From the IMG/VR virus record IMGVR_UViG_2737471753_000001, positions 1-33,365 of that record: 33,365 bases of DNA. One strand, written 5' to 3'. Within the stretch, counting starts at the first letter, position 1. Every line of letters starts with the position of its first letter. The position numbers and the translations under genes are program-made. Positions 1-33,365 of the stretch are shown piece by piece. The notes below the pieces were generated by a model. It did no database searches, was not told where the DNA came from, and saw nothing but the letters and a program-made list of their open reading frames with translations. Source of the DNA: a virus (taxonomy: Duplodnaviria > Heunggongvirae > Uroviricota > Caudoviricetes).

Positions 1-249
1 TCACAATGACAGGCTTAGTTGATCCCTTCCGTAGTGAGACGCCGGAAAGGCATCGTGGGGTATGAAGTCAGGCGGTAACGGCGCAATACCTGCGCGCTTT
101 GTGACTTCCCTTTCCACGCTATTAAGCGTGGTAAATGACCGGCTACATTCCAGATTCTGGCACTGGTGATACTGCCTGATTGTCATGTTGGTCATTCTTC
201 GGCTGGTGCGGGTGCGGGCCATAGCGCCGCAGAATGGACATCTGAACAT
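1..249 (-). CDS. ogr: Ogr/Delta-family zinc-finger late transcription activator
   Basis: 82-aa ORF MFRCPFCGA...YHQCQNLECSRSF with a C-x2-C...C-x4-C zinc-finger pattern, closely resembling P2 Ogr as recalled; SD-like GGGGAG upstream of the ATG at 249; stop codon is the first 3 nt of the window. Confidence 0.85.
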   Translation of the reverse strand: MFRCPFCGAMARTRTSRRMTNMTIRQYHQCQNLECSRSFTTLNSVEREVTKRAGIAPLPPDFIPHDAFPASHYGRDQLSLSL

Positions 250-1453: not shown

Positions 1454-1477
1454 TGTTGTCGCCGGGTCGGGAGAACG
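1454..1477. promoter_or_regulatory. candidate Ogr-type late-activator binding site (TGTTGT-N12-AGAACG) in the D/FI divergent region
   Basis: TGTTGTcgccgggtcgggAGAACG about 80-100 bp upstream of the FI ATG; the same TGTTGT-N12-AGAAC architecture recurs at 20463..20486 between O and P; resembles the P2 late-promoter TGT-N12-ACA dyad as recalled (one mismatch, TGT-N12-AGA). Confidence 0.4.
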
Positions 1478-2738: not shown

Positions 2739-3250
2739 TGGCTGTACCAAAACATCTTCGCTTTTTTACGTTGTTTGTGGATGGTGAAAACGAAGTGGGT
2801 AAAGTGACATCCGTCACGCCGCCCAAACTGACGCGCAAAACCGACAGCTATCGTGGTGGTGGCATGATGGGGGCGGTAAGTATTGATCTCGGTCTGGACG
2901 ACTCCGCGCTTGATGCGAGTTTTGTTATGGGGGGAGCTGTTCGTGCGCTGTTCCTTAAATATGGCGGCACGATTGACGGCACGCTGCTGCGTTTTGCGGG
3001 TGAATACTACACCGATGCAGAAAGCGATCTGTATGAAATCGAGATGCGCGGACGTGTGACGGAAATTGATATGGGGGAAGCCAAACAGGGCGAAGCCACA
3101 TCACACACTTACGCTGTCAAAAACACCTACTACAAGCTGAGCGTTAACGATCGCCCGCTGTGGGAAATCGACCTGTTGAACCACATCTACCGGAAGGACG
3201 GCAAGGACATTGTGCCTGACCGTATCCGTTCCGCGCTTGGGCTTGGCTGA
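2738..3250 (+). CDS. FII: tail tube protein
   Basis: 170-aa ORF whose ATG overlaps the FI stop (ATGA-type coupling); size and sequence fit P2 gpFII. Confidence 0.9.
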   Translation: MAVPKHLRFFTLFVDGENEVGKVTSVTPPKLTRKTDSYRGGGMMGAVSIDLGLDDSALDASFVMGGAVRALFLKYGGTIDGTLLRFAGEYYTDAESDLYEIEMRGRVTEIDMGEAKQGEATSHTYAVKNTYYKLSVNDRPLWEIDLLNHIYRKDGKDIVPDRIRSALGLG

Positions 3251-3305
3251 TAAGTAATATGCAGGCGGCGCAGTGCGTCGCCTCTGACTGAAAAGGAGAC
3301 AACTG

Positions 3306-3680
3306 ATGAAAGACATCGATACTGAAACCCGGAATAACACCGTGGCGGATGATGTGACGGCAGGTGAGGATATGGCTGTCGAACGTGGCGTAAAACTGAC
3401 CCGACCAATTGAGCGTGGTGGCGAAAAAATCACGTATGTGGAGATCACCGGGGCTATTGAACAGGCTGGATCCCTGCGTGGTCTGTCGCTGTCTGATGTG
3501 CTGAATCTGAAAGCGGATACCATGTTCACGCTGTTGCCTCGCGTGACCTCGCCACGACTGGATGAAGTGATGATTAAAAAAATGTCGTCACGCGATTTTA
3601 TTCAGTTGTGCGCTGTGGCTGTAAATTTTATGAGCGAGCCAGACTCTGGCGCGAAGAGCGTGCAGGAGACGGCGGCGTAA
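3306..3680 (+). CDS. E: tail assembly chaperone E (tape-measure chaperone)
   Basis: 124-aa ORF directly upstream of the tape-measure gene with a long overlapping -1 frame ORF, as in the P2 E/E' arrangement. Confidence 0.8.
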   Translation: MKDIDTETRNNTVADDVTAGEDMAVERGVKLTRPIERGGEKITYVEITGAIEQAGSLRGLSLSDVLNLKADTMFTLLPRVTSPRLDEVMIKKMSSRDFIQLCAVAVNFMSEPDSGAKSVQETAA

Positions 3681-3844
3681 TCACCCTGGTGTGCTTTGAT
3701 CACATCGAAGATCTGGTGGCAGATATCGCCGCCATTTTTAACTGGTCGCCCGCCGAAATCTTCATGATGACGCCCGGCGAAGTGGTTAGCTGGCGTGAGC
3801 GGGCGGCACTTCGCAGCGGGAATGCAGACAATGAAGACTCTTGA
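3306..3844 (+). CDS. E+E' fusion chaperone produced by a predicted programmed -1 ribosomal frameshift
   Basis: The -1 frame is open from 3578 to 3844 and overlaps the T start; an X_XXY_YYZ slippery heptamer A_AAT_TTT lies in the E frame at 3623..3629. Mirrors the conserved chaperone frameshift upstream of tape-measure genes. Confidence 0.5.
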
Positions 3845-6638: not shown

Positions 6639-6650
6639 GGAGTCATGGCT

Positions 6651-7139
6651 ATGATGATGATCTACGGCATGTTTGTTTTTGAGCTGCGCACGCTGCCGCA
6701 TCAGCAGTTACAGCAAAACAAAAGCTGGCGGCATGTGAAAAATGAACGCGTTAACCGTTCAGCAAGCTGGCAGTATATCGGTGCAGGTGATGATCGCATC
6801 GTTCTTTCTGGTGTGCTTTATCCTGAAATTACAGGTGGCGAAGTGTCGCTGTCGCTGCTGACCACGCAGGCGTATACAGGACGACCCTGGCCTTTGATTG
6901 ATGGCGTCGGGCAGATTTACGGCATGTATGTCCTGACCGGAACGAATACGACCCGTTCCGAGTTTGATCGCTACGGTAAGGCGAAAAAGATAGAATTTTC
7001 ACTGACCCTTGAACGCTGTGATGAGGATTTGCGGGAGCGCCTGCAATCCTCATCGTTCAGTGATATGCTGTCCGGCTTCAAAGATAAGGTGACATCATCT
7101 CTTAACAGCGCGGCCAGTTCAGTTAAAGGGCTGTTCTGA
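6651..7139 (+). CDS. U: tail protein U
   Basis: Track ORF 6645..7139 (164 aa) resembles P2 gpU; SD GAGGAG at 6636..6641 is best spaced for the ATG at 6651 (MMMIYGMFVF...). Confidence 0.85.
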   Translation: MMMIYGMFVFELRTLPHQQLQQNKSWRHVKNERVNRSASWQYIGAGDDRIVLSGVLYPEITGGEVSLSLLTTQAYTGRPWPLIDGVGQIYGMYVLTGTNTTRSEFDRYGKAKKIEFSLTLERCDEDLRERLQSSSFSDMLSGFKDKVTSSLNSAASSVKGLF

Positions 7140-9234: not shown

Positions 9235-9328
9235 CCGAGTGGATGCTCTATGCGCAGAAGGTCGAATCCACAGACACCTCCAGCCTGCCAGTAACGTTTC
9301 CAGAACAACCAGAATGAAACAAGGCCCG

Positions 9329-9850
9329 CTATCGGGCCTTAATTTTATTCAGGCTTTTGTGGCCATTCAGGATTTGCCGTATCCACACGGCTGACCAGAA
9401 CACTATAGCGTTCCATGACTCCAGTCGTGCGCGTTCCTCATCCGTCGCCATATTCAGCCTGACAGCGCGTTCCAGTGGCTGAATAACGTTTTCTGCTTCG
9501 GAAAGTAACGCGGCCTTTTGTGATTCGGCCTGTTGTTGTTGCTCGTCTGCCGTATAAATCCGTTTAACCACAGCTCCGTCCTTAAACATCCACTTACCGG
9601 AATCATCAGCACGACGATTAGCTGTAATATCAGGAACCTCAACGACGCTATAACCTTCAGGGTTAAGCGTGGAGCATCTTTGTGATGGCGACAATAATAT
9701 TATTTGCATCGTAAACAATCTTTATGTGTCTGGCTGAAAGTTTTTCACTTCCTCATACCAGTTTTTTCCGTCTTCGGACCATAACCAGATAACATCAAAT
9801 TCTTTGTTAGCTGATATTGTTCTTTTGTTTTGGATTTCCAGACTTAATAT
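9329..9850 (-). pseudogene. P2 G-like tail fibre assembly gene remnant (minus-strand copy) with N-terminal frameshifts
   Basis: Intact C-terminal part in track ORF 9329..9718 (...[34 protein letters not shown]...); N-terminal part [13 protein letters not shown]... is readable only by switching frame at least three times. Confidence 0.55.
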
Positions 9851-15582: not shown

Positions 15583-15859
15583 GGTTGTTATCCTCGTTGT
15601 TCAGTCGTTGCAGCCTGCGCTGTTCCAGTAATTCAATGGCCCGTTTATCCGCGTTACAGGTTTCCAGTGCATCCAGAAGGCGGTCGCCCCATATACCGAG
15701 ATTTCCCCATGTGGGAGTGTCAGGGAAGGGGGGAGGCGTTACCGGTATGGTCAGCGTCTGCGGTATAAGCCGGACTGACGGCGCTGGCCGTGGCGCGTTC
15801 TGCGTGCCTGCGCAACCTGTCAGTAAAACGAGCGTCAGGCAAAGCGTGGGCGCATTCAT
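15569..15859 (-). CDS. lysC: o-spanin (Rz1-like outer-membrane lipoprotein)
   Basis: MNAPTLCLTLVLLTGCAG... signal peptide with lipobox, Pro-rich body; reading frame embedded in the 3' part of the i-spanin gene and running into R, as for P2 lysC. Confidence 0.7.
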   Translation of the reverse strand: MNAPTLCLTLVLLTGCAGTQNAPRPAPSVRLIPQTLTIPVTPPPFPDTPTWGNLGIWGDRLLDALETCNADKRAIELLEQRRLQRLNNEDNNHAEN

Positions 15860-17547: not shown

Positions 17548-17620
17548 AAAAAAATCGGGCGGTGGGTGCGCGGTGTAAACGGTCACGGAGTCAAACCGGA
17601 ACACCGCGCACGCCGCCCGC
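17548..17620 (-). terminator. candidate intrinsic terminator/attenuator between M and L
   Basis: On the minus strand a GC-rich imperfect long stem (GGGCGGCGTGCGCGGTG ... CACCGCGCACCCACCGCCC) is followed by a T7 run and then the L RBS and ATG. Confidence 0.4.
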
Positions 17621-19556: not shown

Positions 19557-20393
19557 TCAGAAGTCAGCCAGCTGGTCGGAGGCTGCGCCCGTTGCGGTGA
19601 AGCGGTTCTGCGGATCGCCGTCCTGCGTGCGCAGTTTTTCCTTCAGTGCTGTCAGCTCTGTGGTCAGTGACGTGATTTTCTGGCGGTCCTGCTGATGGCG
19701 GGTTTCCAGCACATTAAAACGGTCGATAATGTCGGCCTGTGACGTTGCGACGCCTTCCACCGCTTCCTGAATACGGGAGAAACTGGCGTCATCCGCTTTG
19801 CGGCCACGACCAATAATCCCCATTACGCGGTTAAACCACTGGGTGCCTTCTTCCTGGCGTTGTTCTGCCATTTCGATGATTTCAGACTCGATGGCTTCGG
19901 AAATGAGCGGTGCTTCACCCTGGACACTGTTGAACGTCATCACCGCCTGACGTTGCTGTGCCGTGAATTTCAGGCGCTCAGTGCCCAGGCTTGCCGGGGT
20001 GTCGGTCATCGCCAGCCCGACCAGATAGGCGCGCCCGTTAACGGAGAACTGCGGGTGCAGTTCGATACTGGAATAGATTTTCTTGCCGTCCGCGACAAGC
20101 TGCTTCATGCGCTCGGTCGGTTCGATTTCTGCATACAGCGCAGTACGTCCGGCCAGCGGACCTTCCGTAATGTCTTCCGTACTCAGTGCGGTGACATCGC
20201 CCATTGCGGAAAATTCGCTTGACGGGCATGGCGAGAGATAGTGCTCAACGTTCACGCGGGCAGCGTAAACATCCGGGTTGAAGTTCTCGGCGGCTTCACG
20301 CAGATGCACCGGACTGATTTCACGGCCATCAACAGTTGATCCGGAGACAGCCACGCGAAACTTTTTGCGGGATGTCTTTTTTTCATTAGCCAT
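19557..20393 (-). CDS. O: capsid scaffolding protein (protease domain family)
   Basis: Track ORF 19557..20426; start placed at MANEKKTSRKKF (SD GAGGGG upstream); resembles P2 gpO. Confidence 0.85.
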   Translation of the reverse strand: MANEKKTSRKKFRVAVSGSTVDGREISPVHLREAAENFNPDVYAARVNVEHYLSPCPSSEFSAMGDVTALSTEDITEGPLAGRTALYAEIEPTERMKQLVADGKKIYSSIELHPQFSVNGRAYLVGLAMTDTPASLGTERLKFTAQQRQAVMTFNSVQGEAPLISEAIESEIIEMAEQRQEEGTQWFNRVMGIIGRGRKADDASFSRIQEAVEGVATSQADIIDRFNVLETRHQQDRQKITSLTTELTALKEKLRTQDGDPQNRFTATGAASDQLADF

Positions 20394-20462
20394 AGTTTTT
20401 GCCCCTCTGACTGGTTCTTCAGTCATGATGGCAAAGCGTAACAGGCTGATACAAAGGGCTTT

Positions 20463-20486
20463 TGTTGTAAGAAAACGGCCAGAACA
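20463..20486. promoter_or_regulatory. candidate Ogr-type late-activator site (TGTTGT-N12-AGAACA) between divergent O and P
   Basis: TGTTGTaagaaaacggccAGAACA, same architecture as 1454..1477; centred roughly 55 bp from plausible start points for both flanking operons. Confidence 0.4.
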
Positions 20487-20547
20487 GGGGGTTAAGGAGA
20501 ACGGTTTCGCGCGCGGGTAATCTTCCTGTAATTACTCAGGGGGAGCA

Positions 20548-22299
20548 ATGATTCAGGACGCTTTTGTGCGCCAGCGTGCGCGGCAACTTTACTGGCAGGG
20601 TTATCCGCCCGCAGAAATATCACGTCTGATGGGAATAAACCCGAACACGATTTATGCGTGGAAAAAACGCGACCAGTGGGATGAAACGCCACCCGTGCAG
20701 CGTGTCACGCAGTCCATCGATGCGCGCCTCATCCAGCTTACTGAAAAACAGAATAAAACAGGTGGTGACTTTAAGGAAATAGACCTGCTGACCCGGCAGC
20801 TTAAAAAACTGCATGATGGCCAGCCGGATGCGACGGCCACAGGAAAGAAAGGCCGGGCGAAAAAACTTAAAAATCATTTCACGCCGGAGCAGATTGCCGC
20901 ACTGCGGGAAAAAATCATCAGCAGGCTGGAGTGGCATCAGCGGGGCTGGTTTGACTCCCTGACCCTTTGCAGTGAAGCCGGGATACGTAACAGGATGATC
21001 CTGAAATCCCGACAGATTGGGGCGACCTGGTATTTTGCACAGGAAGCACTGCTGATGGCGCTGCGTGACGATGTGGCACAACCTTACCAGCGTAACCAGA
21101 TTTTTTTGTCTGCGTCGCGTCGTCAGGCGTTCCAGTTTAAAAGCATTATTCAGAAGGCCGCGGCTGAAGTTGATGTGGAGCTGAAAGGGGGCGATAAAAT
21201 CATCCTCTCCAACGGCGCAGAACTGCATTTTCTCGGTACTTCTGCTGCGACGGCACAGTCCTACACAGGCAATTTTTATTTTGATGAATTTTTCTGGGTC
21301 AGTCGCTTTGCTGAACTGCGCAAGGTGGCTGGCGCTATGGCAACCCTCAGCGGACTGCGGCGCACCTACTTCTCCACGCCATCAACCGAAACGCACGAGG
21401 CATACGTCTACTGGAACGGCGACCGCTGGAACGAGAAAAAGGCCGCGCATAAACGCCAGCGTTTTTCTGTGGACTGGAAAACGCTGCATAACGGGCTTAT
21501 CTGCCCCGACCGGACGTGGCGGCAAATTGTCACGCTGGAAGATGTGGTTAATCACGGCTGGAAACACACCGATATTGATGAAATTCGTGATGAAAACACC
21601 GAAGACGAGTTCCGCAATCTCTATATGTGTGAGTTTGTCCGCGAAGGGGAATCGGCATTTAACCTGAATATCCTGATTGGCTGCGGCGTTGACGGATACG
21701 ACGACTGGAAAGACTGGAAACCTTTTGCTCCCCGCCCGATGGGAAATCGTCCGGTATGGATTGGGTATGACGCAAACGGCAGCAGTGGCAACGGCGACAG
21801 CGGCGCTGTGTCCGTGGTGGTTCCTCCGGCTGTTCCTGGTGGCCGTTTTCGAACGGTGGAGACGCGACGCGTTCAGGGGCTGGAGTTTGAAGAACAGGCC
21901 AGAGTCATTGAAGAGTTCACGTGTCGCTACAACGTGGAACACATCGGCATTGATGTGACGGGCGGGAACGGGGAGGCTGTTTATCAGATAGTGAAACGGT
22001 TTTTCCCTGCTGCTATTCCGTACACCTTCACGCTGTCATCAAAACGGTCGCTGGTACTGAAAATGCTGCAAATAATGCGTGCCGGGCGGTGGGAATACGA
22101 TCGCGCCGAACGCGAACTGGTCGCGGCCTTTAACGCCGTGCGTAAGGTGAAAACACCGGGCGGCTTTATCACTTACGAAACGGACCGCGCGAGGGGGATC
22201 AGCCACGGCGACCTTGCGTGGGCGACCATGCTTGCTGTCATTAACGAACCGATTGGCGGCGAAGGAGAAAACGAGCGTTTCACGGTTATGGAGTTCTGA
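20548..22299 (+). CDS. P: terminase large (ATPase) subunit
   Basis: 583-aa ORF; size and sequence fit P2 gpP; divergent from O as in P2. Confidence 0.9.
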   Translation: MIQDAFVRQRARQLYWQGYPPAEISRLMGINPNTIYAWKKRDQWDETPPVQRVTQSIDARLIQLTEKQNKTGGDFKEIDLLTRQLKKLHDGQPDATATGKKGRAKKLKNHFTPEQIAALREKIISRLEWHQRGWFDSLTLCSEAGIRNRMILKSRQIGATWYFAQEALLMALRDDVAQPYQRNQIFLSASRRQAFQFKSIIQKAAAEVDVELKGGDKIILSNGAELHFLGTSAATAQSYTGNFYFDEFFWVSRFAELRKVAGAMATLSGLRRTYFSTPSTETHEAYVYWNGDRWNEKKAAHKRQRFSVDWKTLHNGLICPDRTWRQIVTLEDVVNHGWKHTDIDEIRDENTEDEFRNLYMCEFVREGESAFNLNILIGCGVDGYDDWKDWKPFAPRPMGNRPVWIGYDANGSSGNGDSGAVSVVVPPAVPGGRFRTVETRRVQGLEFEEQARVIEEFTCRYNVEHIGIDVTGGNGEAVYQIVKRFFPAAIPYTFTLSSKRSLVLKMLQIMRAGRWEYDRAERELVAAFNAVRKVKTPGGFITYETDRARGISHGDLAWATMLAVINEPIGGEGENERFTVMEF

Positions 22300-23345
22300 T
22301 GAGCAGAAAAAATAAAAAAGTGCGCATGAGTTCACGCATTGATCTCGCTGATGCGCTCAGGAAAGAATCATCGCTCAGTGCATTCACATTTGATGGTCCT
22401 TATCGCCTGACCGGGCATGACCTGCTGGACAATATGTACTGTGCTGATAACGGGCGGTGGTATGAAACCCCGGTGGACTGGTACGGTCTGGCAAGAGCTG
22501 CCCGGCAAACGTCCTGGCATCAGTCTGCGCTTTACTTTAAGCGCAATGTATTGCTCGGTTGCTATATTCCTCACCCGCTGCTTTCCCGGCAGGATTTCTC
22601 GGCGCTGGCGCTGGACTGGTTTGTGTTCGGTAACGCATTCCTTGAGCTTCGAAGCAATATGCTCGGTGAACCGCTTAAATTACGGCACGCCCTGGCGAAA
22701 TACATGCGACGCGGAAGCGATCTTGAATCATGGTGGTATGTGCAGGATGGCAAGGACGCGTTCCAGTTTCGCCCTGGCAAAGTGTGCCACCTGATGAATC
22801 CGGATATTAACCAGGAAATCTACGGCATGCCGGAATATCTTGGCGCATTACTCTCGGCCAGCCTGTCTCATTCGGCGGACATGTTCAGAAAACTGTATTA
22901 CGACAACGGATCCCACGCCGGGTGCATCATCTACATCGGTGCAGCGCAGGTAAACCGCGAAAGCATGGACTCCCTGAAAGAAACGCTACAGGGGGCACGT
23001 GGTGGTGGTGCGTTTAAAAACGTGCTCATTCATGCGCCCAACGGGGGCAAAGAGGGGGTGCAAATTTTGCCGTTCCAGCAGATCACCGCAAAGGATGAGT
23101 TCATGAATGTTAAGGCGGCATCCCGTGATGATGTGCTGGCTGCGCACCGCGTTCCACCGCAACTGATGGGGGCAATGCCGGGCGAAAAAAGTGCGTTTGG
23201 TGATGTGGAGAAGGCCGCGCGGGTTTACGCAATTAACGAGCTGATGCCCGTCATGGAGGCCATGAAGCACATCAATGACTGGCTTGGCGAAGAGGTGATC
23301 CGCTTTAACCCTTACGCACTGTTAGACACCCAGCCCACATCCTGA
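22299..23345 (+). CDS. Q: portal protein
   Basis: 348-aa ORF, start overlapping the P stop; fits P2 gpQ. Confidence 0.9.
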   Translation: MSRKNKKVRMSSRIDLADALRKESSLSAFTFDGPYRLTGHDLLDNMYCADNGRWYETPVDWYGLARAARQTSWHQSALYFKRNVLLGCYIPHPLLSRQDFSALALDWFVFGNAFLELRSNMLGEPLKLRHALAKYMRRGSDLESWWYVQDGKDAFQFRPGKVCHLMNPDINQEIYGMPEYLGALLSASLSHSADMFRKLYYDNGSHAGCIIYIGAAQVNRESMDSLKETLQGARGGGAFKNVLIHAPNGGKEGVQILPFQQITAKDEFMNVKAASRDDVLAAHRVPPQLMGAMPGEKSAFGDVEKAARVYAINELMPVMEAMKHINDWLGEEVIRFNPYALLDTQPTS

Positions 23346-23770
23346 CGCGCTTCGCTTGTCTGCTGCTTCGCCGGGGCATAAAAAATTTATGCCCCGACTC
23401 TCCAGCTCCTGTATCAGTCAGATAATTTCACGACGCTTTCCTGCTGATTGCCATCATCGACAGTCAGACTCTTACGCAATCCCACCGCGTTGACTGCATG
23501 TTCTCGCCGTCTCAGTGCGATTTTGACGGCCTTACCTTTCACCCCATCAAATCAAAAGCTCTCACGTCTTTTTCACGCTCAGCGTGAGAAATACAGCCAT
23601 TCTGTTGTATCTCTGCGACATCGTTCAGGGAATGCTATTTACCCCCTGAAACGCGGGCTGTTCCCCCGTCACCTGCGCGCAGAAAAAACGCGTTTTTTTG
23701 TGCACGCACGGATCCCTGACGGATCCAGCCGCCACGCGGGCCGGAAGGGCAAAAAGTCGTTCAAAAAAAT

Positions 23771-23796
23771 TGTGCAAATTTGTGCACTATTGTGCA
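23771..23796. repeat. three direct TGTGCA repeats at exact 10-bp phasing
   Basis: TGTGCAaattTGTGCActatTGTGCA at 23771, 23781, 23791; helical-turn phasing suggests a protein-binding array. Confidence 0.6.
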
Positions 23797-23810
23797 GTGT
23801 GAAGAGCAAT

Positions 23811-23840
23811 AAAAAAGGGCTTTATTAGCCCTTAATTTTT
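23811..23840. terminator. bidirectional intrinsic terminator at the 3' end of the cargo operon
   Basis: Stem AAGGGC / GCCCTT with 7-nt loop, flanked by an A6 run and AATTTTT; on the minus strand the hairpin is followed by TTTTTTATT just after the PIN-like gene stop. Confidence 0.7.
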
Positions 23841-24477
23841 ACCTTCCCCAGTCCCGATCAGGAAGTCTATCTTTGAAGGCAAGGTAATCGTAAAACTCAC
23901 GAGTATGGGAAAAAATACATTCGCACATTGCAGCGCCAGCGTTTGAAAGAGCCAATTTCAACATGCCGTCAGGTTTAGGATTGCTCACCAAATTTTCATA
24001 AACTTGAGCCTGATCTAAACCGTGGACACATAACAAAAGCGAAGACTCAAAGGTAACAACCGCATCCAGTAAACGCTGATGAATCACGGAAAGGGTCGGT
24101 TGGTTTGCAACAATTGCAGTCAAACAGCGGCGATCACCAGTCATAAAAATGGCTTCTGGGTTCTCTATGCACGAGGCAAGCAATAGCTGTTCGCCTACAT
24201 CAATTCCGGGCACACTCCCCAAAAGCTCAATAAGCTGGGAGTCCTGAACTTCCGGGATATCCTGTACAGATTCAATGAAGGCTCCCACTTGCTCGTAAAC
24301 AACTTGGCTACCACACTTCCTGATTGCTTTATCAGGATTTTTCGGCAGAAGCTGAAAACGAGCAGCAGGGTTAATGAAGATCTGTTCGGGGGGTTGATTA
24401 AAAACCACTGGCAGTTGTGATAACAGATTGCACTGGGCCAGCTTCAAAATGACATCATTATCAGAAAGAACAATCAC
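23839..24477 (-). CDS. PIN-like (DUF4411-type) putative nuclease, second gene of cargo cassette
   Basis: 212-aa ORF, GTG start with SD GGGGAA, beginning (M)IVLSDNDVILKL (PIN beta1-Asp pattern) with later acidic motifs (...IFMTGDRR...); start 4 nt downstream of the upstream gene's stop; AT-rich relative to phage core. Confidence 0.5.
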   Translation of the reverse strand: MIVLSDNDVILKLAQCNLLSQLPVVFNQPPEQIFINPAARFQLLPKNPDKAIRKCGSQVVYEQVGAFIESVQDIPEVQDSQLIELLGSVPGIDVGEQLLLASCIENPEAIFMTGDRRCLTAIVANQPTLSVIHQRLLDAVVTFESSLLLCVHGLDQAQVYENLVSNPKPDGMLKLALSNAGAAMCECIFSHTREFYDYLAFKDRLPDRDWGR

Positions 24478-24480
24478 TTA

Positions 24481-25479
24481 TTATTCCCCGATTAGATTTT
24501 CTAAAACCTTAAGATCATCTTCGTGGATATTTTCTAAATCCATCCCGCTTTTCATCATGGCCCTCACAAAATCCTGATCTGAGTCTTCACCAGCGCAGAG
24601 TGATTTAACAGCGTTAACAGCAACGCCCCAGCAGTTCTGCGCGAAACCATAATTTAAAGCGATGTGAGTTGGGTCAATGTGATTATCACTTCCAAACTTT
24701 TGAGCTGCGCGAGCCAAGCCTGGCCCGTTCAACCTGCCAGCGGTAGGAACGATACGTAAAGACTTCTGCCCCGAAATGACCTGGAAGGCGAATTCGTTAG
24801 CTTCTTTCTCTACGTTGTCCGTCGAAGCATTCTCAATTTTTGCGTCAATATGGCACTGCCCGTTTTCTGCGTTCAGATGCCCTCTGGCGATATGGCCTAA
24901 CTCATGCGCGAGATCAAACAGCATATAGCCGTATTTCTGAGGCTGAGTAAGAACAATCACCGGGCGCCCGTGACTCATTAGCGCCAGTCCGGCCATTTTT
25001 TTTGCAGCTTGTGGGAAGCATTTTAGATAAACAACAGGAATGCCAATCGAATGACAGTATGTTACCAGGCTATCTAGCGACACCCATGATTCCTTAGTAA
25101 GGATCTGGGTTCTTATCGCCAAAGGATCCAGCACTGCACTAGCATCGTAAGGGACTTTGAAATTAGACGCGACAATACCGGCCGCAGTATAGGCAACAGC
25201 AGTAGCGATATCTAAATCGTTCTCGGCTACATTTTGGCGATGTTTATATTTATGGTTTCCACCAAAATTAAAGCATACCCCTTCGCTACCATCTTTCAGG
25301 CTATCCGGGAGAATGCTAAACATACGCGCAAGGTGCAGGCACGCATACTGGCGCCCTGATGGGGTGTCAGCAAGCTTCTCATCCCACCAATCAGGCAACA
25401 ACCTGCGGATGTAAGAGAGATTAAACCCGGCCCGGCCGAATTTAGAATATATCTGACTCATCTGATTATGGTTCGTCAT
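24481..25479 (-). CDS. COG2856 / ImmA-IrrE family zinc metallopeptidase-domain protein, first gene of cargo cassette
   Basis: 332-aa ORF with AGGAGG RBS; central ...GIPVVYLK...PVIVLTQPQKYGYMLFDLAHELGHIARGH...EKEANEFAFQ... (HEXXH plus downstream E-x-EAN-FA signature) and unassigned N- and C-terminal regions. Confidence 0.7.
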   Translation of the reverse strand: MTNHNQMSQIYSKFGRAGFNLSYIRRLLPDWWDEKLADTPSGRQYACLHLARMFSILPDSLKDGSEGVCFNFGGNHKYKHRQNVAENDLDIATAVAYTAAGIVASNFKVPYDASAVLDPLAIRTQILTKESWVSLDSLVTYCHSIGIPVVYLKCFPQAAKKMAGLALMSHGRPVIVLTQPQKYGYMLFDLAHELGHIARGHLNAENGQCHIDAKIENASTDNVEKEANEFAFQVISGQKSLRIVPTAGRLNGPGLARAAQKFGSDNHIDPTHIALNYGFAQNCWGVAVNAVKSLCAGEDSDQDFVRAMMKSGMDLENIHEDDLKVLENLIGE

Positions 25480-25637
25480 AAGAGCCTCCTAACTGCGTGT
25501 GTAAGCGAAATGCCATTTATTATTAGCTTAGTTATGACACAAAAGCGCGCACACTATAAGCATAAAACGGCGAAAGTCATAACTATTTCGGTTGTGTGGA
25601 AAATGGGTAATTTCTTCTTAGAGCAGCTTATATCGGC

Positions 25638-28025
25638 TTAGTTCCGCGAAAATGCCGCTTTCATCCTATTCACAAGATCGCTTGTTTTTTGCTTCGCCGC
25701 CATCACTTGCGACGGCAGCCTCTCCAGCCCCGACGCGGCCCGGTTGCGCGATACCAGCCGCCCGTCCTGCACGGTCATAACAAGATCGCCGCACGCCACT
25801 GACGCACCGGCCATCATCGATCTGACCATTCCGGCGCTGGCATCAATCCCACGTAGCGCCAGCAGTTCACTGATCTGCTGCTCTTTCACGGATAACCCGT
25901 CCCCGTCTTTCCGTTCCGGTGGCCGTTTTTTACGCTTACTGCGCACATCGTCACTAAGCCGCTGCGCCAGTTCTCGCTTTTCCTGCCGGGAAAGCGCATC
26001 AAAATTCACCGTCACGCCCTCAGCTGGTGCAGTCATTTCTGACTGCCCTTTAGCTTCGCTGGCGGCATGTTCAACACCGTCAGCACCTGCCGCGGGATCC
26101 CGCGTACAGTTATTGACAGAACTCCGAGGGGCGGCGCTGCCGCCTGAAAAACCAACGTCAACGGCCACACCGTCAGCGCTCTGGCGCTTCGGCACGATTT
26201 TGTATTGAGTGGTGCGGGTGAAGATCAAAGAGTCATTGCCCGTGATCGGGCAGTAAATACCAGTGATTCGCTGGACGTTATCGCCGTAGGCGTTGCCATT
26301 TTCAGTGATTTCATAGTTCAGACGGATGCGCAGTTTATCGCGCTCAACCAACGGGCCACCCTGGGCTAATACGTAGTTATCCCATTCACCACCGTTAGCA
26401 GCCTGCCGGGCGGTTTCCAGTTCAGGGTGTAACACCAGTTCGCGATCGCCCAAGCGGCGAAGTTCGCGATATACCGTGACCGGCGCACCGCCGATCTGCT
26501 GAAACTGGCGAATAGCCCAGCGCGATGCCCACGCGCTAACACGGAGTGACATTTCTTTCAGGTCTTCCCCGGTTTCGTCGTCCTTCTCACCATCCAGCGC
26601 GAAGCCGTCGATATTCTTCGAAATGTATTTCGCTATGTAGCCGGTTGCGCTGCCGTGGGCATCGTCGATCGGCACAACCTGAAAGCGGTTTTCCTGCGCT
26701 CCCGGTTCGTTGCCGTCTTCTTTCAGGGCATATTTACGGAAGATTTCGCGCGCCTGCTCGACGCATTCCGGGCGCATAAAAAGAAGTAAATGCCAGTGTG
26801 GCGTTGCATCGTGGTGCGGTTCGACCACGCGGAAACCAAAGACGCGGATCCCTTTTCTCTTCCACGCTGCGCGGGTTCTCGCCCAGACTTTGCAAAGATA
26901 TTGCTGCGTCTCGCGCGGCGACGCGCCACAGTATTTATTATTGCGGCGCCCGTTATGCTGCATGGAGTGGTAACGGGAAGGTGCTGTCAGCGTGTAGAAG
27001 TCACCGGCCAGCCCTTCCAGCTTCGCCAGATCTTCAAATCCGCGCATTCTCGTCATGAGTTCGCGGCGACGGTTGGCCGGATTGGCAACACTACCGGCGA
27101 CTTTATCGATCAGTGAAATGCGCTCGCCCGTGTCCTGGTCTTCCAGCTCCATAGCCTTAAGGTATTCACGGTTAGCCTTTTTCTGGGCCAGCCATTCCGT
27201 AAGGCACGGGGCGCTACTGTATGGGGAAGATTTTTTCTGGACGTATCCCGCCGCGATCATCAAGTGCTCACGCCATCGGGCATGGATACGGCGCAGGCGG
27301 TTTAACCACCATTGCGGTGACTCAAGACGGAGAACCGCGCGTAACGCGTCCTCCGCTTCAAGTTCTTCATTGCAATACGCTGTCCAACCTGGGATCGGCG
27401 TTTTTAGATGCACCGCCAGCGACGCAATACGGCCATAGCCAGAAAGCGCCGCGAACTCAGGATCGCCGGTGCGCGCCAACTGGTAATCGGACTCGCGTAT
27501 AAACTCGCTCGTAAAGATATCGGCAAGCGTATAAGCCAGTCTTTTTAACTCTTTTTTCCCTGCCCAAAGCATACGGAAAAGCTGATCGCGGATTGGCAGC
27601 AGAATGCCAGGCATCACAGTGTCAGGCTGGTAAACACTGTTCACGCTATCAATACGTGTTAATACGTGGCGCTCAAAGGTATTAACCAGCCAGTGATCTG
27701 CCGCTTTGCGGTCTTTCGCGTCCAGTGCATCCAGCTTCGCGGCAAAGTGGCGGCGGATATACTGCGGAAGGGAAGCCAGACGGCGACGCAGCAGCTTGCT
27801 GCGCTCCGACTTTTCGTCCTCCGCTACCAGTTCACTGAACGCAATATGCTTGCGGGTGCCGTCCGGCGTGAGATAGTCGAAACCATCCAGCCCCGTCGCT
27901 ACATCAACGCCAATCGGCTGGTATGGTTTGTTCCCGCCATAAGCGTAAGGGGTAGCATTATCAGTGCTACCCGAATACGGTGGAGGTGGAGAAGGGGCGC
28001 GACGGCCACGGGTTGCCGTAGTCAT
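25638..28025 (-). CDS. A: rolling-circle replication initiator (gpA family)
   Basis: 795-aa ORF with ...HWHLLLF... and ...GYIAKYISK... motifs typical of P2 A-type nicking initiators; start overlaps the methyltransferase stop. Confidence 0.9.
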   Translation of the reverse strand: MTTATRGRRAPSPPPPYSGSTDNATPYAYGGNKPYQPIGVDVATGLDGFDYLTPDGTRKHIAFSELVAEDEKSERSKLLRRRLASLPQYIRRHFAAKLDALDAKDRKAADHWLVNTFERHVLTRIDSVNSVYQPDTVMPGILLPIRDQLFRMLWAGKKELKRLAYTLADIFTSEFIRESDYQLARTGDPEFAALSGYGRIASLAVHLKTPIPGWTAYCNEELEAEDALRAVLRLESPQWWLNRLRRIHARWREHLMIAAGYVQKKSSPYSSAPCLTEWLAQKKANREYLKAMELEDQDTGERISLIDKVAGSVANPANRRRELMTRMRGFEDLAKLEGLAGDFYTLTAPSRYHSMQHNGRRNNKYCGASPRETQQYLCKVWARTRAAWKRKGIRVFGFRVVEPHHDATPHWHLLLFMRPECVEQAREIFRKYALKEDGNEPGAQENRFQVVPIDDAHGSATGYIAKYISKNIDGFALDGEKDDETGEDLKEMSLRVSAWASRWAIRQFQQIGGAPVTVYRELRRLGDRELVLHPELETARQAANGGEWDNYVLAQGGPLVERDKLRIRLNYEITENGNAYGDNVQRITGIYCPITGNDSLIFTRTTQYKIVPKRQSADGVAVDVGFSGGSAAPRSSVNNCTRDPAAGADGVEHAASEAKGQSEMTAPAEGVTVNFDALSRQEKRELAQRLSDDVRSKRKKRPPERKDGDGLSVKEQQISELLALRGIDASAGMVRSMMAGASVACGDLVMTVQDGRLVSRNRAASGLERLPSQVMAAKQKTSDLVNRMKAAFSRN

Positions 28026-28936
28026 TGCGCGATCTCCATGTAGGCTTTTAAGAAAGTAGCGGCTGCATAGATATTTACGGCGTTTCCGCTGGCGCGTAGT
28101 TTTCCCACTCTGGAGGGAACCCCATCAACCAGAGGCTTAAGGCCGGGTTTAACTGGCCTCCACTTTCCATCTCTGCAAAAGAGCCAGTCAGCAGATCCCC
28201 AGAATCCGTTAACCGGGCCGGGCCTGCTATCTGCGCTGTCACATCCAGCGTATCCGTTGACAGCTTCCCGTGCCGCATCCTTCCCCCCTGATACCCGCCC
28301 TTTCCATCCCTCGCCGTAGGGGTGGGCCAGCCCGCAAGACAAGCAAAGTCCTGTAAGTTCGACTGCCGACCAGCCAGCTTCTTGGCGATCACCTTCTCGG
28401 CATCCTGATAAGCGTTCTTCGTATTGCTCGCGGTTGGAGTCGGCCAGCCAGTAAGTACGCTCCCGGATGTGCGGCGCACCGACGCCCGCAGACGGAAACG
28501 CCGACGCCCCGAAGGCATAGCCCAAACTTTCCATGTCTGTTTGTACAAGGTCGATCCAGACTTCTGCATCTTTGCTTGAAGACTGTTCGCCAAATATAAC
28601 GACAGGGCGTTGCTGGCCTGCAAGCCAATGAACGGCGGGCCATAGGTGCCGCTCATCATCAAATTGTTTTCCTTCGCCTGCCTGGCTGAAAGGTTGGCAT
28701 GGGCAACTTGCTGTCCATACTGGGCGGTCATCCGGCCATCCTGCAACGCGCAAAGCCCGGGGCCAGCCTCCAAAACCTGCAAACAGGTGGACTTGAGAGA
28801 ATCCTTTAATGTCATTTGGGGTTACATCCTCAACGGAACGAGTATCAACAACGCCGGAAGCGATAAGCCCGGCATCAATGAGGTTGCGCAGGTATTGCGC
28901 GGCGAAGGGGTCGATTTCGTTGTAGTAGGCGGTCAC
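28022..28936 (-). CDS. DNA (cytosine-5) methyltransferase, possibly frame-disrupted
   Basis: 304-aa frame carries C5-MTase motif I (FAGFGGW), motif IV (SCPCQPFSQAG), a motif VIII-like HIRERTYW and a C-terminal GNAV; a +1 frame (track ORF 28075..28815) is open across most of the gene and carries a duplicated GWPTPTA motif. Confidence 0.65.
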   Translation of the reverse strand: MTAYYNEIDPFAAQYLRNLIDAGLIASGVVDTRSVEDVTPNDIKGFSQVHLFAGFGGWPRALRVAGWPDDRPVWTASCPCQPFSQAGEGKQFDDERHLWPAVHWLAGQQRPVVIFGEQSSSKDAEVWIDLVQTDMESLGYAFGASAFPSAGVGAPHIRERTYWLADSNREQYEERLSGCREGDRQEAGWSAVELTGLCLSCGLAHPYGEGWKGRVSGGKDAAREAVNGYAGCDSADSRPGPVNGFWGSADWLFCRDGKWRPVKPGLKPLVDGVPSRVGKLRASGNAVNIYAAATFLKAYMEIAQ

Positions 28937-29253
28937 TGCTGCCCCTCCGCCTTTCGGCTACACCGATCGATTACTTGGTACTGAATTTCTAAACCCAGCT
29001 TTTCAGCAAGCGCGTGCTCTGCCTTAGCTCCCGCAGACTGCTGCCAGCCATCCAGCAAGAAGATCCCGTCAGCACAACGCAACATGGCGAAGCAAATATC
29101 CATGTATTCCGCCTGCTCTAATCCGTCCGGCAAAATCGCCGGATTAAGGGCAACGTTTCCGCGTCGCACTACGTGCCCAGCTGCACGGTTAAAAGCCTGC
29201 CGATTGAATCCAGGCAAACCGCTCATCGGGCCAGCGATATAGATTTTTGCCAT
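28933..29253 (-). CDS. DUF4406-like (nucleoside 2-deoxyribosyltransferase-like fold) protein
   Basis: 106-aa ORF MAKIYIAGPMSGLPGFN...; coupled (overlapping start/stop) to the Dam and C5-MTase genes. Confidence 0.5.
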   Translation of the reverse strand: MAKIYIAGPMSGLPGFNRQAFNRAAGHVVRRGNVALNPAILPDGLEQAEYMDICFAMLRCADGIFLLDGWQQSAGAKAEHALAEKLGLEIQYQVIDRCSRKAEGQQ

Positions 29254-30224
29254 TAAAAAGCCTCCAGATCGCCAAACGTGCCCGCCGCAACCATCGCGTT
29301 GTAAGTCGCATCACCCATCACGGCGCCACAATCAGGGCAACCGCCGCCGTAACGCCCGCAGCAGTCGCAGACAGGCAGCACGCCGATCACTTCTTTGGCC
29401 TTCTGTCGGTTGTTTTTGTCAGTGCTGACGGAACGTTGCACGCTGATTTTGTGCATCTTGAAGGGCTGATAAATCGCGCGGGTGGCTTCGGTGTCGCTGT
29501 TGGAAATGACGACCTTCACGCCATGCTTACGGTTAACTTCCAGCAGTGCCTGGACTAACTGGCGGTGGTTGTCTTCCGTGAATGGTTCGGTGTGGTATTG
29601 GGTAAAATCGGCTGTTTTGCTTTCAGGCAGGTAAGGCGGATCGCAGTAAACGAGAACATCGCCACCCGTGACGACCTGTAGAGAACGCTGGAACGGCGCG
29701 CACAGAAATATTGCCTTTGTATCGTTGGCCTTTTCGGCAAACAGGCGGATTTCATTTTCAGGAAAGTAGACGCTCTTATACTTGCCAAACGGCACGTTAA
29801 AGCCAGTCTTCCGGCTGTATCGGCATAAGCCGTTATAACCGTGGCGATTCAGATACAGGAATTGAGCAGCGCGCATAATGCACGCCATTTCAGCGCCATA
29901 ACGCAACCCACCGCTTTTGACCGTACCCACCTGCTTATTGAACGCGGCGCGGACTTCGTTGTATCCCTGCGGGCTGTTCTTACTGTTGAACAGTTCACGG
30001 GCCGCATCGATCACTAAGTCCGGGTAACGGGTGACTTCCCGATACAGGTTAATAAGATCCGGGTTGATATCAGCCAGCACATAGCGGCGGTATTCAGTCG
30101 CCAGAAATACCGATGCGCCGCCTACGAACGGTTCGATCAGGCAGTCGGCTTTAGGAAGATGCGGCAGCAGGTCAGGGAGGACACGGGTTTTTCCCCCTGC
30201 CCATTTGATGAACGGGCGGATCAT
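29253..30224 (-). CDS. dam: DNA adenine methyltransferase (Dam-like, N6A) with Cys-rich C-terminal extension
   Basis: Start placed at MIRPFIKWAGGK (SD GGAG upstream); DPPY motif (...VYCDPPYLPE...); C-terminal tail ...PVCDCCGRYGGGCPDCG... resembles a zinc ribbon. Confidence 0.8.
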   Translation of the reverse strand: MIRPFIKWAGGKTRVLPDLLPHLPKADCLIEPFVGGASVFLATEYRRYVLADINPDLINLYREVTRYPDLVIDAARELFNSKNSPQGYNEVRAAFNKQVGTVKSGGLRYGAEMACIMRAAQFLYLNRHGYNGLCRYSRKTGFNVPFGKYKSVYFPENEIRLFAEKANDTKAIFLCAPFQRSLQVVTGGDVLVYCDPPYLPESKTADFTQYHTEPFTEDNHRQLVQALLEVNRKHGVKVVISNSDTEATRAIYQPFKMHKISVQRSVSTDKNNRQKAKEVIGVLPVCDCCGRYGGGCPDCGAVMGDATYNAMVAAGTFGDLEAF

Positions 30225-30225
30225 T

Positions 30226-30438
30226 TTACAGGACTCCGTAATGGGAAGCTGGAATAGAAGGGCGCTGCAATTCTTCAATGCAGTGCTGGCGCAGATTGCT
30301 TATAAAATTGGTTGCTACAGACCCACTGGCAGAAAGGGTTAACTCACCATCACGGCGGGTTTTAATGGTTAACCCTTCATTTTCGATAGCAGGTAAAAGA
30401 ACATGCAAAATGAAACTATATTGTTCACGTCTGGTCAT
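30226..30438 (-). CDS. hypothetical protein
   Basis: 70-aa ORF (MTRREQYSFILHVLLPAIENEGL...) with SD GGAGGAAG; ends 2 nt before the Dam start. Confidence 0.45.
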   Translation of the reverse strand: MTRREQYSFILHVLLPAIENEGLTIKTRRDGELTLSASGSVATNFISNLRQHCIEELQRPSIPASHYGVL

Positions 30439-30524
30439 AATCTCTTCCTCCAAAAAAGAATGAGTTGAACCGCCGCCACTTAATAAAGGGGCGGAGAAAA
30501 CAGAGTTGATTTTTTAAAACCGAA

Positions 30525-30785
30525 TTACTTAATTAGCTTTTTAAATAACTCAGCCAGAGTAAGCAGGAAGCCTTTATTTATTCTTTGGGTATAAATAAAA
30601 GGTTTATTTTTACCTTTGATAAATTGAACCTTCGCCGGTTCGGGCTTAAAAAATCTTCCGTCCGGCGTTTCCAGCCAGCCGCGTGAGTTCTTGAAGTGTG
30701 TGACCTGGCACCCATGCTTAAGCAGGCTTGCCAGTGATGGGCCTTCATCGTGCATTACTGCCCCCTTGCTTATACATCTGATCAA
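30525..30785 (-). CDS. hypothetical protein (AT-rich island)
   Basis: 86-aa ORF in a visibly AT-rich stretch; start uncertain (internal MHDEGPSL... possible); overlaps the next ORF. Confidence 0.3.
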   Translation of the reverse strand: MIRCISKGAVMHDEGPSLASLLKHGCQVTHFKNSRGWLETPDGRFFKPEPAKVQFIKGKNKPFIYTQRINKGFLLTLAELFKKLIK

Positions 30786-30996
30786 CCGTGTGCATGGCTT
30801 CCGCTAAAGCAAAATCACGCCCGTAATAATCGCCATTACTGGAAATACGATAAGAGTGTTTAAATGTAAAAGGATTACGCGGGCATTTCTGAATAGTGAA
30901 GCCACGATATAAATACGAGTGACGACTTAACTGTATTAATTGCACAGCCACAAAAGCCCCCTCACATTCCCAATTTAAGTAATTCGCCATCAACAT
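30745..30996 (-). CDS. hypothetical protein (AT-rich island)
   Basis: 83-aa ORF; no recognisable motif. Confidence 0.3.
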   Translation of the reverse strand: MLMANYLNWECEGAFVAVQLIQLSRHSYLYRGFTIQKCPRNPFTFKHSYRISSNGDYYGRDFALAEAMHTVDQMYKQGGSNAR

Positions 30997-31165
30997 GGCG
31001 GGCCACGTCTTTGGTGATTTTCTTAATCAGCTTTTTATCCCTGACCATAAACTCGCCTCGATTGGTGCGAATCATGAAGCCCGTTTGCATATCTTTTAAA
31101 TGGGTGTCCAGAATGTCGTTGCATTCACGCACCCGGTTTTCGTGGTTGGCTGTTTTCTGGCTCAT
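30962..31165 (-). CDS. hypothetical early protein downstream of cox
   Basis: Track ORF 30962..31342 overlaps cox in another frame; start placed at MSQKTANHENR... just after the cox stop (67 aa). Confidence 0.35.
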   Translation of the reverse strand: MSQKTANHENRVRECNDILDTHLKDMQTGFMIRTNRGEFMVRDKKLIKKITKDVARHVDGELLKLGM

Positions 31166-31175
31166 CGCGTTAACC

Positions 31176-31457
31176 TCAAAGACCGATCCACAGCAACCAA
31201 GCATCGCGCTGTTCTTTCGGACGGTTGTAGTAGGCGTCTCGCATTGCGCGGTTGAACTCAGGGATATAGATCCAGTTCTCAGCGCGGGCGCCCAAGCTTT
31301 CCGGGTTCTTCCACGGGATGATCGGCAACTTACCGTCTTCAATCATGCTCTTAACCGTGGCGGGCTTCTTACCGATCAATTCGGCAAATTTTGGGTATGG
31401 AACCGCGTCAACAGCGTGACGCACTTCAATGAACCCCTCTAACTCTTTGTCTGTCAT
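31176..31457 (-). CDS. cox: Cox-like excisionase / early-operon regulator
   Basis: 93-aa ORF ...VPYPKFAELIGKKPATVKSMIEDGKLPII...NWIYIPEFN...RDAWLLWIGL resembling P2 Cox; first gene of the minus-strand early operon. Confidence 0.85.
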   Translation of the reverse strand: MTDKELEGFIEVRHAVDAVPYPKFAELIGKKPATVKSMIEDGKLPIIPWKNPESLGARAENWIYIPEFNRAMRDAYYNRPKEQRDAWLLWIGL

Positions 31458-31552
31458 AGTGTTTTACCTCTCATTGAAGATAGGCCGGGATTTTTAGCCA
31501 CGCCCGGCGCGTGGTATTCTGGTGTTTCCACACAACCAGAAAGGAGATTTTT
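31458..31552. promoter_or_regulatory. divergent early/lysogenic promoter-operator region
   Basis: 95-bp spacer between divergent cox and plus-strand genes containing dyads GCCGGG-N13-CCCGGC and CCACGC-N5-GCGTGG plus -35/-10-like hexamers on both strands (e.g. TTGAAG; TATTCT). Confidence 0.5.
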
Positions 31553-31789
31553 ATGTCTCAGAAAGAAGTACCTATCTACATTCCTGCTGAACTTGAATAC
31601 CTCGTTGCTAATGACTTGGCTTGCTTACGCTTCCACTACCACTTAGCTACACCTACAAAACTGCCCGAAGCTGGTGAGCTGTTTACTGGTTTAACCGTTG
31701 AGCAAGCAAAAGACACCGTAACCTTCCTTCAGCAATACATTGCTAAAGCTGAACTTGCCGCCTCACTGTCCCCGAAGCGGAGCCACTAG
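31553..31789 (+). CDS. hypothetical protein encoded between the switch region and repressor C
   Basis: 78-aa ORF with RBS AAGGAG at 31541..31546 (MSQKEVPIYIPAELEYLVANDL...); no recognisable motif; P2 has no gene at this position. Confidence 0.5.
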   Translation: MSQKEVPIYIPAELEYLVANDLACLRFHYHLATPTKLPEAGELFTGLTVEQAKDTVTFLQQYIAKAELAASLSPKRSH

Positions 31790-31994
31790 TTTTAACCGTC
31801 CCCGCATAACGTCCATTTGGGAAATAACTACGGCGGAATTCAGCAAAATGGATTCCGTCACTTCTGTTGTCCTGCTCAAGTCTTCCACTCATTTGTGCTA
31901 ATCTCCGCATTAGCGCTAGGCGCTTATTTCGGCTTGTAACTGCTTATATTGGCGGTTGCTCATGGTAGAGATTACCACCCTTAAGGAGAATGTT

Positions 31995-32315
31995 ATGGTA
32001 GAGATCCCTACCCCGTCAAGCGGCGTGGGTGAAAAAATCAGAGCTATCAGAGATGCAGAGGGGTTAACAAGGCAGCAATTCTTTGAATTAACTGGAATAC
32101 CTGCTGGCACGCAGAAGTATTACGAGACAGGAAGAGTGGAGAGCATTGGTAGCGATATCTTGCTTAAGATCACTCAGCATTCACGTTTCGCAAAATATAC
32201 GCTCTGGCTAATGACTGATAAGACCGCCCCTCAAGCTGGTCAAATCGCACCGGCCCTCGCACACATTGGGCCAGAGTCAACTGGATCAGGCCGCTCAGAG
32301 ACACAAACTGGCTAA
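31995..32315 (+). CDS. C: immunity repressor C
   Basis: C-terminal ...FAKYTLWLMTDKTAPQAGQIAPALAHIGPES... resembles P2 C; start placed at ATG 31995 with RBS AAGGAG; an in-frame ATG at 31962 shares the sequence ATGGTAGAGAT. Confidence 0.8.
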   Translation: MVEIPTPSSGVGEKIRAIRDAEGLTRQQFFELTGIPAGTQKYYETGRVESIGSDILLKITQHSRFAKYTLWLMTDKTAPQAGQIAPALAHIGPESTGSGRSETQTG

Positions 32316-32384
32316 CCATCTATAAACATTACATTTTCACTATCTGTTACCAGGATGGGGAAATAAACGCCGGAGGGCTTTCTT

Positions 32385-33365
32385 ATGTCGATTAAGAAGC
32401 TCGAAGGTGGTCAATATGAAGTAGACGTATGGCCGCGCGGACGTAACGGAAAACGTATCCGCAGGCGATTTGAGAAGAAACAAGAGGCGGTTCTTTTTGA
32501 GCGTTATGTATTAGCCAACGCCGACAAAAAAGAGTGGCTGGGCGCGAGCGTTGACCGTCGCACCTTAAGCGAGTTGTTAGATACCTGGTGGCTGCTGTAC
32601 GGACAGACTCAGGAAAATGGCGAGATTGAAAAGCGGCACCTGAATAAAACAATCAGGGCACTGGGCGATCCAGCCGTTAACCGACTGAACAAGCGAATGA
32701 TTGCTCAGCACCGAGGCCAACGGCTGGAAGACGGTATCAGCGCTGCAACGATCAACCGGGATATTTACCGCTTATCCGGGATGTTCAGCACGTTGATAAA
32801 ACTGGAAGAGTTCAGGAAGGAAAACCCCTGCAAGGGTCTAGAACCATTGAAAGAAGCGCCGCCAGCTATGACCTATCTAGCAAAATCAGAGATCAGCAGA
32901 TTGCTGGATACTCTGACCGGCGACGATCGACGTGTAGCACTGCTATGCCTCAGCACCGGCGCACGCTGGGGCGAAGGCAGCACGCTGCGAGGTGAGCAGG
33001 TTAATCACGGGCGCGTAACGTTCCTTAAGACCAAAAACGGAAAAAAGCGCACCGTTCCGATATCGGAAGAACTGGAGAAAGAGATCAAGACCAGCGACAC
33101 CGGGCCACTGTTCAAAGTTGACTATGAAAACTTCTGCGAACGACTCAAACAGGTTAAGCCCGATTTACCACGTGGGCAGGCCACACACGTTCTTCGGCAT
33201 ACTTTCGCAAGCTGGTTCATGATGAATGGAGGAAACATTATTGCGTTACAGCAAATTCTGGGGCACGCCAGCATACAACAGACGATGGTTTATGCTCACC
33301 TTGCCCCCGATTACCTGCAACACGCGGTAACGTTAAACCCTCTCGGCGGTGGGCTGGCGGTGTGA
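32385..33365 (+). CDS. int: tyrosine integrase (P2 Int family)
   Basis: 326-aa ORF with RBS GGAGGG; C-terminal catalytic region ...HVLRHTFASWFMMNGGNIIALQQILGHASIQQTMVYAHLAPDYL... (R...H-x-x-R...Y); stop codon is the last 3 nt of the window. Confidence 0.92.
   Translation: MSIKKLEGGQYEVDVWPRGRNGKRIRRRFEKKQEAVLFERYVLANADKKEWLGASVDRRTLSELLDTWWLLYGQTQENGEIEKRHLNKTIRALGDPAVNRLNKRMIAQHRGQRLEDGISAATINRDIYRLSGMFSTLIKLEEFRKENPCKGLEPLKEAPPAMTYLAKSEISRLLDTLTGDDRRVALLCLSTGARWGEGSTLRGEQVNHGRVTFLKTKNGKKRTVPISEELEKEIKTSDTGPLFKVDYENFCERLKQVKPDLPRGQATHVLRHTFASWFMMNGGNIIALQQILGHASIQQTMVYAHLAPDYLQHAVTLNPLGGGLAV

Follow-up and report, generated by a model that had tools for sequence, protein, structure and literature searches.

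A predicted Ogr-type activator site shared by the divergent O and P late promoters of a P88-like prophage

The activator Ogr binds inverted repeats centred near position -55 and requires the α subunit of RNA polymerase (PMC3152322), and rpoA109 suppressors have been located in ogr (PMC11434276). The P2 record (NC_001895) carries three annotated activator binding sites, one of which (3057..3087) is assigned to pO as well as to pP and is flanked by the mapped starts of P (3016, minus) and O (3127, plus). A 24-mer anchored on the TGTTGT of P2 (GGTTGT at pF) matches the centres of the three annotated sites within 1 bp. Measured from the centre of this 24-mer, the mapped starts are found at a distance of 55.5 bp for pO, 55.5 bp for pP, 56.5 bp for pV and 57.5 bp for pF, and the -12..-7 hexamers of the P2 late promoters begin 31-33 nt after it. 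Comparable elements have been predicted in phages of other hosts. In the Ralstonia phages phiRSA1 and phiRSY1 the motif TGTTGT-N13-ACAACA is predicted at four late promoters (PMC5694545), and in the Stenotrophomonas phage Smp131 a single set of TGT-N12-ACA coordinates is assigned to PP′ on one strand and to PO′ on the other (PMC3931495).

The DNA analysed here, referred to as the window, is a stretch of 33,365 nucleotides (IMG/VR record IMGVR_UViG_2737471753_000001) which is a P88-like prophage of E. coli (Xuanwuvirus, Peduoviridae, P2 family). Its late-gene half corresponds gene by gene to that of Escherichia phage P88 with 97-100% identity (Table 1). The early, replication and immunity region (23400-32400) is unlike P88, the replication protein being 32%, the C protein 40% and the integrase 48% identical, and it includes an ORF resembling Fil of phage 186 (30525-30785, minus). 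In terms of these comparisons the prophage is a mosaic.

Table 1. Positions in the window of the genes, predicted activator sites and promoter-like elements
Feature	Position	Strand	Remarks
ogr-like gene, presumed cognate activator (82 aa)	1..249	minus	Pfam Ogr_Delta (PF04606), E = 3.4e-17; directly downstream of D
D	1397-288	minus	P88 counterpart
D-side extended -10-like element, TG-C-GACCAT	1425-1417	minus	hexamer 31 nt after 24-mer
Second copy of the predicted site, TGTTGT-N12-AGAACG	1454..1477	none	between divergent genes D and FI; one mismatch; weight-matrix rank 2, 21.9 bits
FI-side -10-like hexamer, GATGAT	1509-1514	plus	31 nt after 24-mer
FI-FII-E-T-U	1554-7139	plus	P88 counterparts
O-N-M-L-X-lysis-R-S-V-W-J-I-H-G	20393 down to about 9400	minus	P88 counterparts
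gpO, capsid scaffold/protease	19557..20393	minus	leads leftward late operon; Pfam Phage_GPO, E = 1.3e-90; P88 gpO 100% identical
Extended -10-like element of the inferred gpO late promoter, TG-C-CATCAT	20425..20433	minus	hexamer 32 nt after 24-mer; ATGATGGCA kept in relatives
T-tract adjoining the TGTTGT half, O side (TTTTGTTGT)	20459..20462	none	also at the D/FI site and most relatives' sites
Proposed Ogr-type activator binding site, common to the P and O late promoters	20463..20486	none	TGTTGT-N12-AGAACA, imperfect dyad, centre 20474.5
GC-rich block CGCGCGCGGG just 5′ of the P-side hexamer	20507..20517	plus	CGCGCGC invariant in four-genus alignment
-10-like hexamer of the inferred gpP (terminase/portal) late promoter, TAATCT	20518..20523	plus	31 nt after 24-mer; invariant in four genera
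gpP, large terminase	20548..22299	plus	leads P-Q late operon; Pfam Terminase_6N/6C/Terminase_5; P88 99% identical
P-Q	20548-23345	plus	P88 counterparts

The O/P site and its counterpart between D and FI

The divergent genes O and P are separated by an intergenic region of 154 bp (20394-20547). On its plus strand the sequence TGTTGTAAGAAAACGGCCAGAACA is found at 20463-20486 without a mismatch, which bears out the TGTTGT-N12-AGAACA motif of the original prediction. The distances given there, 70 bp to the gpO start on the minus strand and 62 bp to the gpP start on the plus strand, are likewise correct, since gpO starts at 20393 and gpP at the ATG at 20548. For gpO, position 20393 is preferred over 20426 because the P88 annotation, a ribosome-binding site (GAGGGG) and the Pfam alignment, in which the GPO domain begins at residue 10, all favour it. 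The rejected ATG at 20426, which opens the longest ORF, would fall inside the presumed -10 element of the O promoter.

In the extended dyad TGTTGT faces TGTTCT, and five of the six positions are complementary. The classical consensus, TGT-N12-ACA, takes in the inner TGT and the first half of the right hexamer; at the O/P site this inner frame reads TGT-N12-AGA, a 5/6 match by which the element belongs with the partial dyads of the TGT-N12-ACA type. This reading is also why an exact scan of the window for TGT-N12-ACA, which gave 3 matches where 7.5 are expected and none at the late promoters, missed the site. The P2 sites come no closer to it, reading TGT-N12-CCA, CCA and CAA in this frame. As far as these alignments go, the usually quoted consensus is too strict and the O/P site is a one-mismatch variant of it in the same frame. 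A search of the O/P region for inverted repeats returned trivial palindromes only.

The second copy of the motif is located between D and FI. The two sites had been described as exactly conserved; this holds for TGTTGT and for the N12 spacing but not for the right hexamer, which is AGAACG at D/FI, so that the hexamers agree at 11 of 12 positions. At the same time, the common sequence reaches farther outward than had been stated and comprises TTTTGTTGT-N12-AGAAC(A/G)G. Since D is inverted relative to P2 and divergent from FI, an arrangement kept in four genera, this second activator site looks bidirectional too, with -10-like hexamers placed at like offsets on both sides.

With at most one mismatch, TGTTGT-N12-AGAACA occurs twice in the window, at O/P and D/FI only, against 0.15 matches expected; matches with two mismatches are as numerous in coding DNA as chance predicts. 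A weight matrix derived solely from the six sites present in the relatives phiT5282H, 3LV2017 and ST16-OXA48phi5.4, with the window left out, ranked 20458-20487 first (28.6 bits) and 1449-1478 second (21.9 bits), followed at 1.0 bits by 30687-30716, which belongs to the early region and has no late promoter. The best score among 30 shuffles was 14.6. A chance occurrence of the motif is excluded. The original prediction had named a similar frequency in coding regions as the observation that would speak against it; no comparable coding match was found, and the only other copy of the motif again sits at late promoters, between D and FI. A further site, for example upstream of V or R, was sought with the weight matrix over the whole window, and nothing scored above 1 bit. 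The gap between lysB and R (15583-15719) has no motif either, and the region upstream of V, which had been singled out for scanning, yielded nothing: V overlaps S and the weight matrix finds no site there.

Promoter elements and conservation in relatives

On both sides of both sites, -10-like hexamers are present 31-32 nt from the 24-mer, and the same offsets recur in the other three genera. These hexamers were picked by their position and are weak (CATCAT, GACCAT). The offsets imply predicted starts about 55-56 bp from the centre of the 24-mer. Transcription of gpP would begin near 20530 and that of gpO near 20419; the two starts would be 111 bp apart, giving leaders of 18 nt (P) and 26 nt (O) that contain the ribosome-binding sites. 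A scan for sigma-70 -35/-10 promoters on both strands of the interval 20300-20650 detected none, and no -35 element is recognisable, as is to be expected since the promoters should depend on an activator. Directly upstream of the P-side hexamer, CGCGCGC(G)GG is invariant across genera (the window and loci L003-L005 and L010-L014), and a similar block, CGCGCGCG, precedes the D-side hexamer of the relatives.

The O/P region was compared with those of phages of three other genera, Enterobacter phiT5282H, Klebsiella 3LV2017 and Klebsiella ST16-OXA48phi5.4, to which it is about 70% identical. The sequence TTGTTGT-N12-A[GC]A[AC]C is present in exactly two copies in each of five genomes (the window, P88 and the three relatives), one at O/P and the other at D/FI, and in every case the TGTTGT half points to O or D. 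In the four-genus O/P alignment the invariant blocks are ATGATGGCA on the O side, TTGTTGT, GCCA.A.C, and CGCGCGC plus TAATCT, while the 12-bp spacer and most other positions vary. The right half-site is only loosely conserved (AGAAC, AGACC, ACAAC or ACAGC) and the dyad is therefore markedly asymmetric. Relatives of the 3LV2017 type read exactly TGT-N12-ACA.

Scanning a genome collection with gpO produced 7 loci and added five genera. Prophages of Pectobacterium, Brenneria, K. michiganensis and Serratia, with gpO proteins 63-66% identical to that of the window, retain TGTTGT-N12-ACA(A/G)CC, and in a Symbiopectobacterium prophage, whose gpO is 69% identical, the site takes the variant form TTTTGT-N12-AGACCT. 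The 80 loci obtained from a scan of IMG/VR all encode a gpO at least 99% identical to that of the window and were used only in a limited analysis of polymorphism. From 77 of them the intergenic region was recovered, and it falls into 19 haplotypes, among which there is no change in TTTTGTTGT, one in AGAACA and several in the spacer and flanks; these changes, though small in number, fit the pattern of conserved half-sites and a variable spacer.

Two observations concern the records themselves. One locus (L009, NZ_JBQPOM010000071.1), labelled Vagococcus sp., has a P88-like gpO region 98% identical to that of the window on a contig with a Gram-positive label, which is probably due to contamination or mislabelling. 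Its O/P site reads AGAACG, a second change in AGAACA and the same as in the D/FI copy of the window. The annotated starts of FI in phiT5282H (5397-6623) and ST16-OXA48phi5.4 (35465-36763) are apparently too far upstream: a conserved MSETRFHG start is present downstream of them, and the extensions cover the activator site and the promoter.

The presumed activator and the use of the site

The ORF at 1-249 matches PF04606 with 62.5 bits against a cutoff of 26.3 and carries the zinc-finger motif C4-X2-C7-X22-C30-X4-C35 (CX2CX22CX4C); a presumed cognate activator of the C4 type is thus encoded in the window. The protein is 44% identical to P2 Ogr, and each of the seven genomes compared encodes an Ogr homologue. 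In P88 an unannotated homologue directly follows D (34476-34724); it is 48% identical to the window protein, and the activator sites of the two phages are the same. With Ogr of the Enterobacter phage phiT5282H the window protein shares 90% identity. Judging from these identities, the activator apparently moves together with the early module when that is swapped, and different versions of it appear able to stand in for one another at the same sites. A sigma-70-like promoter, CTGACT-17-TAAAAT (285-313, minus), overlaps the stop codon of D, with the ATG of ogr 36 nt farther downstream. P2 likewise has its own ogr promoter between D and ogr, and in the window ogr could be read from both this promoter and the D-side late promoter.

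We consider it very probable that positions 20463-20486 constitute the binding site of an Ogr-family activator and that this site serves both of the divergent late promoters. The zinc-finger protein encoded at 1-249 (minus) would bind the 24-bp imperfect dyad, which would be placed about 55 bp upstream of two activator-dependent late promoters devoid of a -35 element. By analogy with P2, the bound activator should recruit the host RNA polymerase through the C-terminal domain of its α subunit. A single bound complex would serve both directions, possibly at the same time: to the right the promoter with TAATCT for P-Q (terminase and portal), and to the left the promoter with TG-C-CATCAT for O-N-M-L and the genes downstream (head, lysis and tail). 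The original prediction of an activator site gains support from the ogr gene, from the frame and geometry known from P2 and from the conservation of the half-sites. Its more guarded suggestion that both divergent promoters might share this predicted site agrees with the symmetric placement of the hexamers in four genera and with the single pO/pP site of P2.

An alternative explanation would be that the dyad is an Ogr site for one of the two promoters only, the other one being served by a separate, weaker site or being independent of the activator. The asymmetry of the dyad, whose orientation relative to the gene pairs is always the same, could be taken to mean this, as could a weak -35-like TTGAGC 18 nt upstream of CATCAT on the O side of the relatives, which could give some activator-independent activity. 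We nevertheless regard this explanation as improbable. The 154-bp intergenic region has one site only and no second weight-matrix match above 1 bit, and a promoter of the sigma-70 type was not detected. Moreover, the hexamers are found at 31-32 nt on both sides, at both sites and in four genera, and the P2 record has a single pO/pP site with starts at +55.5 and -55.5.

It is very unlikely that the motif is recognised by a factor other than Ogr (a host nucleoid protein, another phage regulator, or a packaging or replication element) or is kept only through shared ancestry, as might be argued from the imperfect match to the classical consensus and from the fact that P88 and the window have the same sites with Ogr proteins only 48% identical: the half-sites and spacer are conserved as in a protein-binding dyad among relatives about 70% identical whose flanks diverge, the site is restricted to the two late divergent promoter regions and agrees in frame and distance with the activator sites annotated in P2, a search of the whole window against Rfam matched no family, and cross-activation among diverged Ogr-family proteins is established for P2, P4, 186, PSP3 and phiR73.

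If the O/P dyad is indeed a bidirectional Ogr site, the D/FI site looking bidirectional as well and a separate V promoter being absent, the two sites appear from their layout to serve four late transcription units. A wider proposal can be put forward only tentatively, and we think it possible but on the whole rather doubtful: that in the group made up of P88, Novemvirus, Reginaelenavirus and Reipivirus two bidirectional sites, O/P and D/FI, run the whole late regulon, with the asymmetry of the dyad determining how strong the divergent promoters are relative to each other, or which of them fires first, and with feedback from D to ogr. The asymmetry recurs consistently: the TGTTGT half is nearly invariant, mostly with a T-rich outer flank, the right half varies and the orientation is fixed. 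Four promoters would then be driven from two bound complexes, and the D-side promoter would close a positive feedback loop on the activator because ogr is located directly downstream of D.

Two hairpins are found along the leftward genes. A very stable one (17548-17619, minus; -50.6 kcal/mol, z = -5.35), followed by seven U, is located between gpM and gpL, inside the presumed long transcript from O to G and with no activator site downstream; it may act in attenuation, termination or processing of the transcript. A GC-rich hairpin at 9320-9341 with T-runs on both strands, between convergent tail-fibre assembly genes, is likely a bidirectional terminator ending the late operon.

Significance and comparison with described systems

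In the searchable literature we found no description of the late promoters or of ogr in P88-like phages and no transcription start, footprint or reporter data for this lineage; the P88 genome paper and the paper on Citrobacter phiSM make no mention of ogr or late promoters. With the O/P element, a well-known class thus gains a newly annotated member. Our understanding of P2-type late control is unchanged, because P2 itself already has a shared pO/pP site annotated. What is gained is a usable annotation for a very common prophage family of E. coli and other Enterobacterales, namely the predicted late promoter positions in P88-like phages and the sequence most likely recognised by their Ogr proteins, with all structural and lysis genes apparently under two sites. 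This should be of help in engineering or inducing these prophages and in reading their transcriptomes.

The closest described counterpart is the pO/pP site of P2, bound by Ogr or by the Delta protein of P4. Like the site in the window it is single and lies between divergent P and O genes, and both phages encode an Ogr zinc-finger activator. The TGTTGT left half, the 24-bp frame and the hexamer distance of 31 nt are alike, and the mapped pO and pP starts of P2 are 111 bp apart, the same separation as predicted in the window (20419 to 20530). The right half differs, with CCATCC in P2 and AGAACA in the window, and the orientation of the dyad is reversed, TGTTGT facing P in P2 and O in the window. 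In P2 there are additional sites, for pV and pF, that act in one direction, whereas the window has only one other, the apparently bidirectional site between D and FI. In contrast to P2 there is no separate V promoter in the window, where R, S and V adjoin one another and the search gave no third site.

The Ralstonia phages phiRSA1 and phiRSY1 resemble the window in having the TGTTGT half-site and an Ogr homologue, their motifs being upstream of the homologues of P, O, V and FI (PMC5694545). Their motif is a perfect dyad with an N13 spacer, predicted only and present in four promoter regions, as opposed to an imperfect dyad with an N12 spacer in two regions of the window. The common coordinates of PP′ and PO′ in Smp131 amount to a shared site, as in the window, although this phage is of another genus and sequence, its site is a prediction only and its tail operons are arranged differently.
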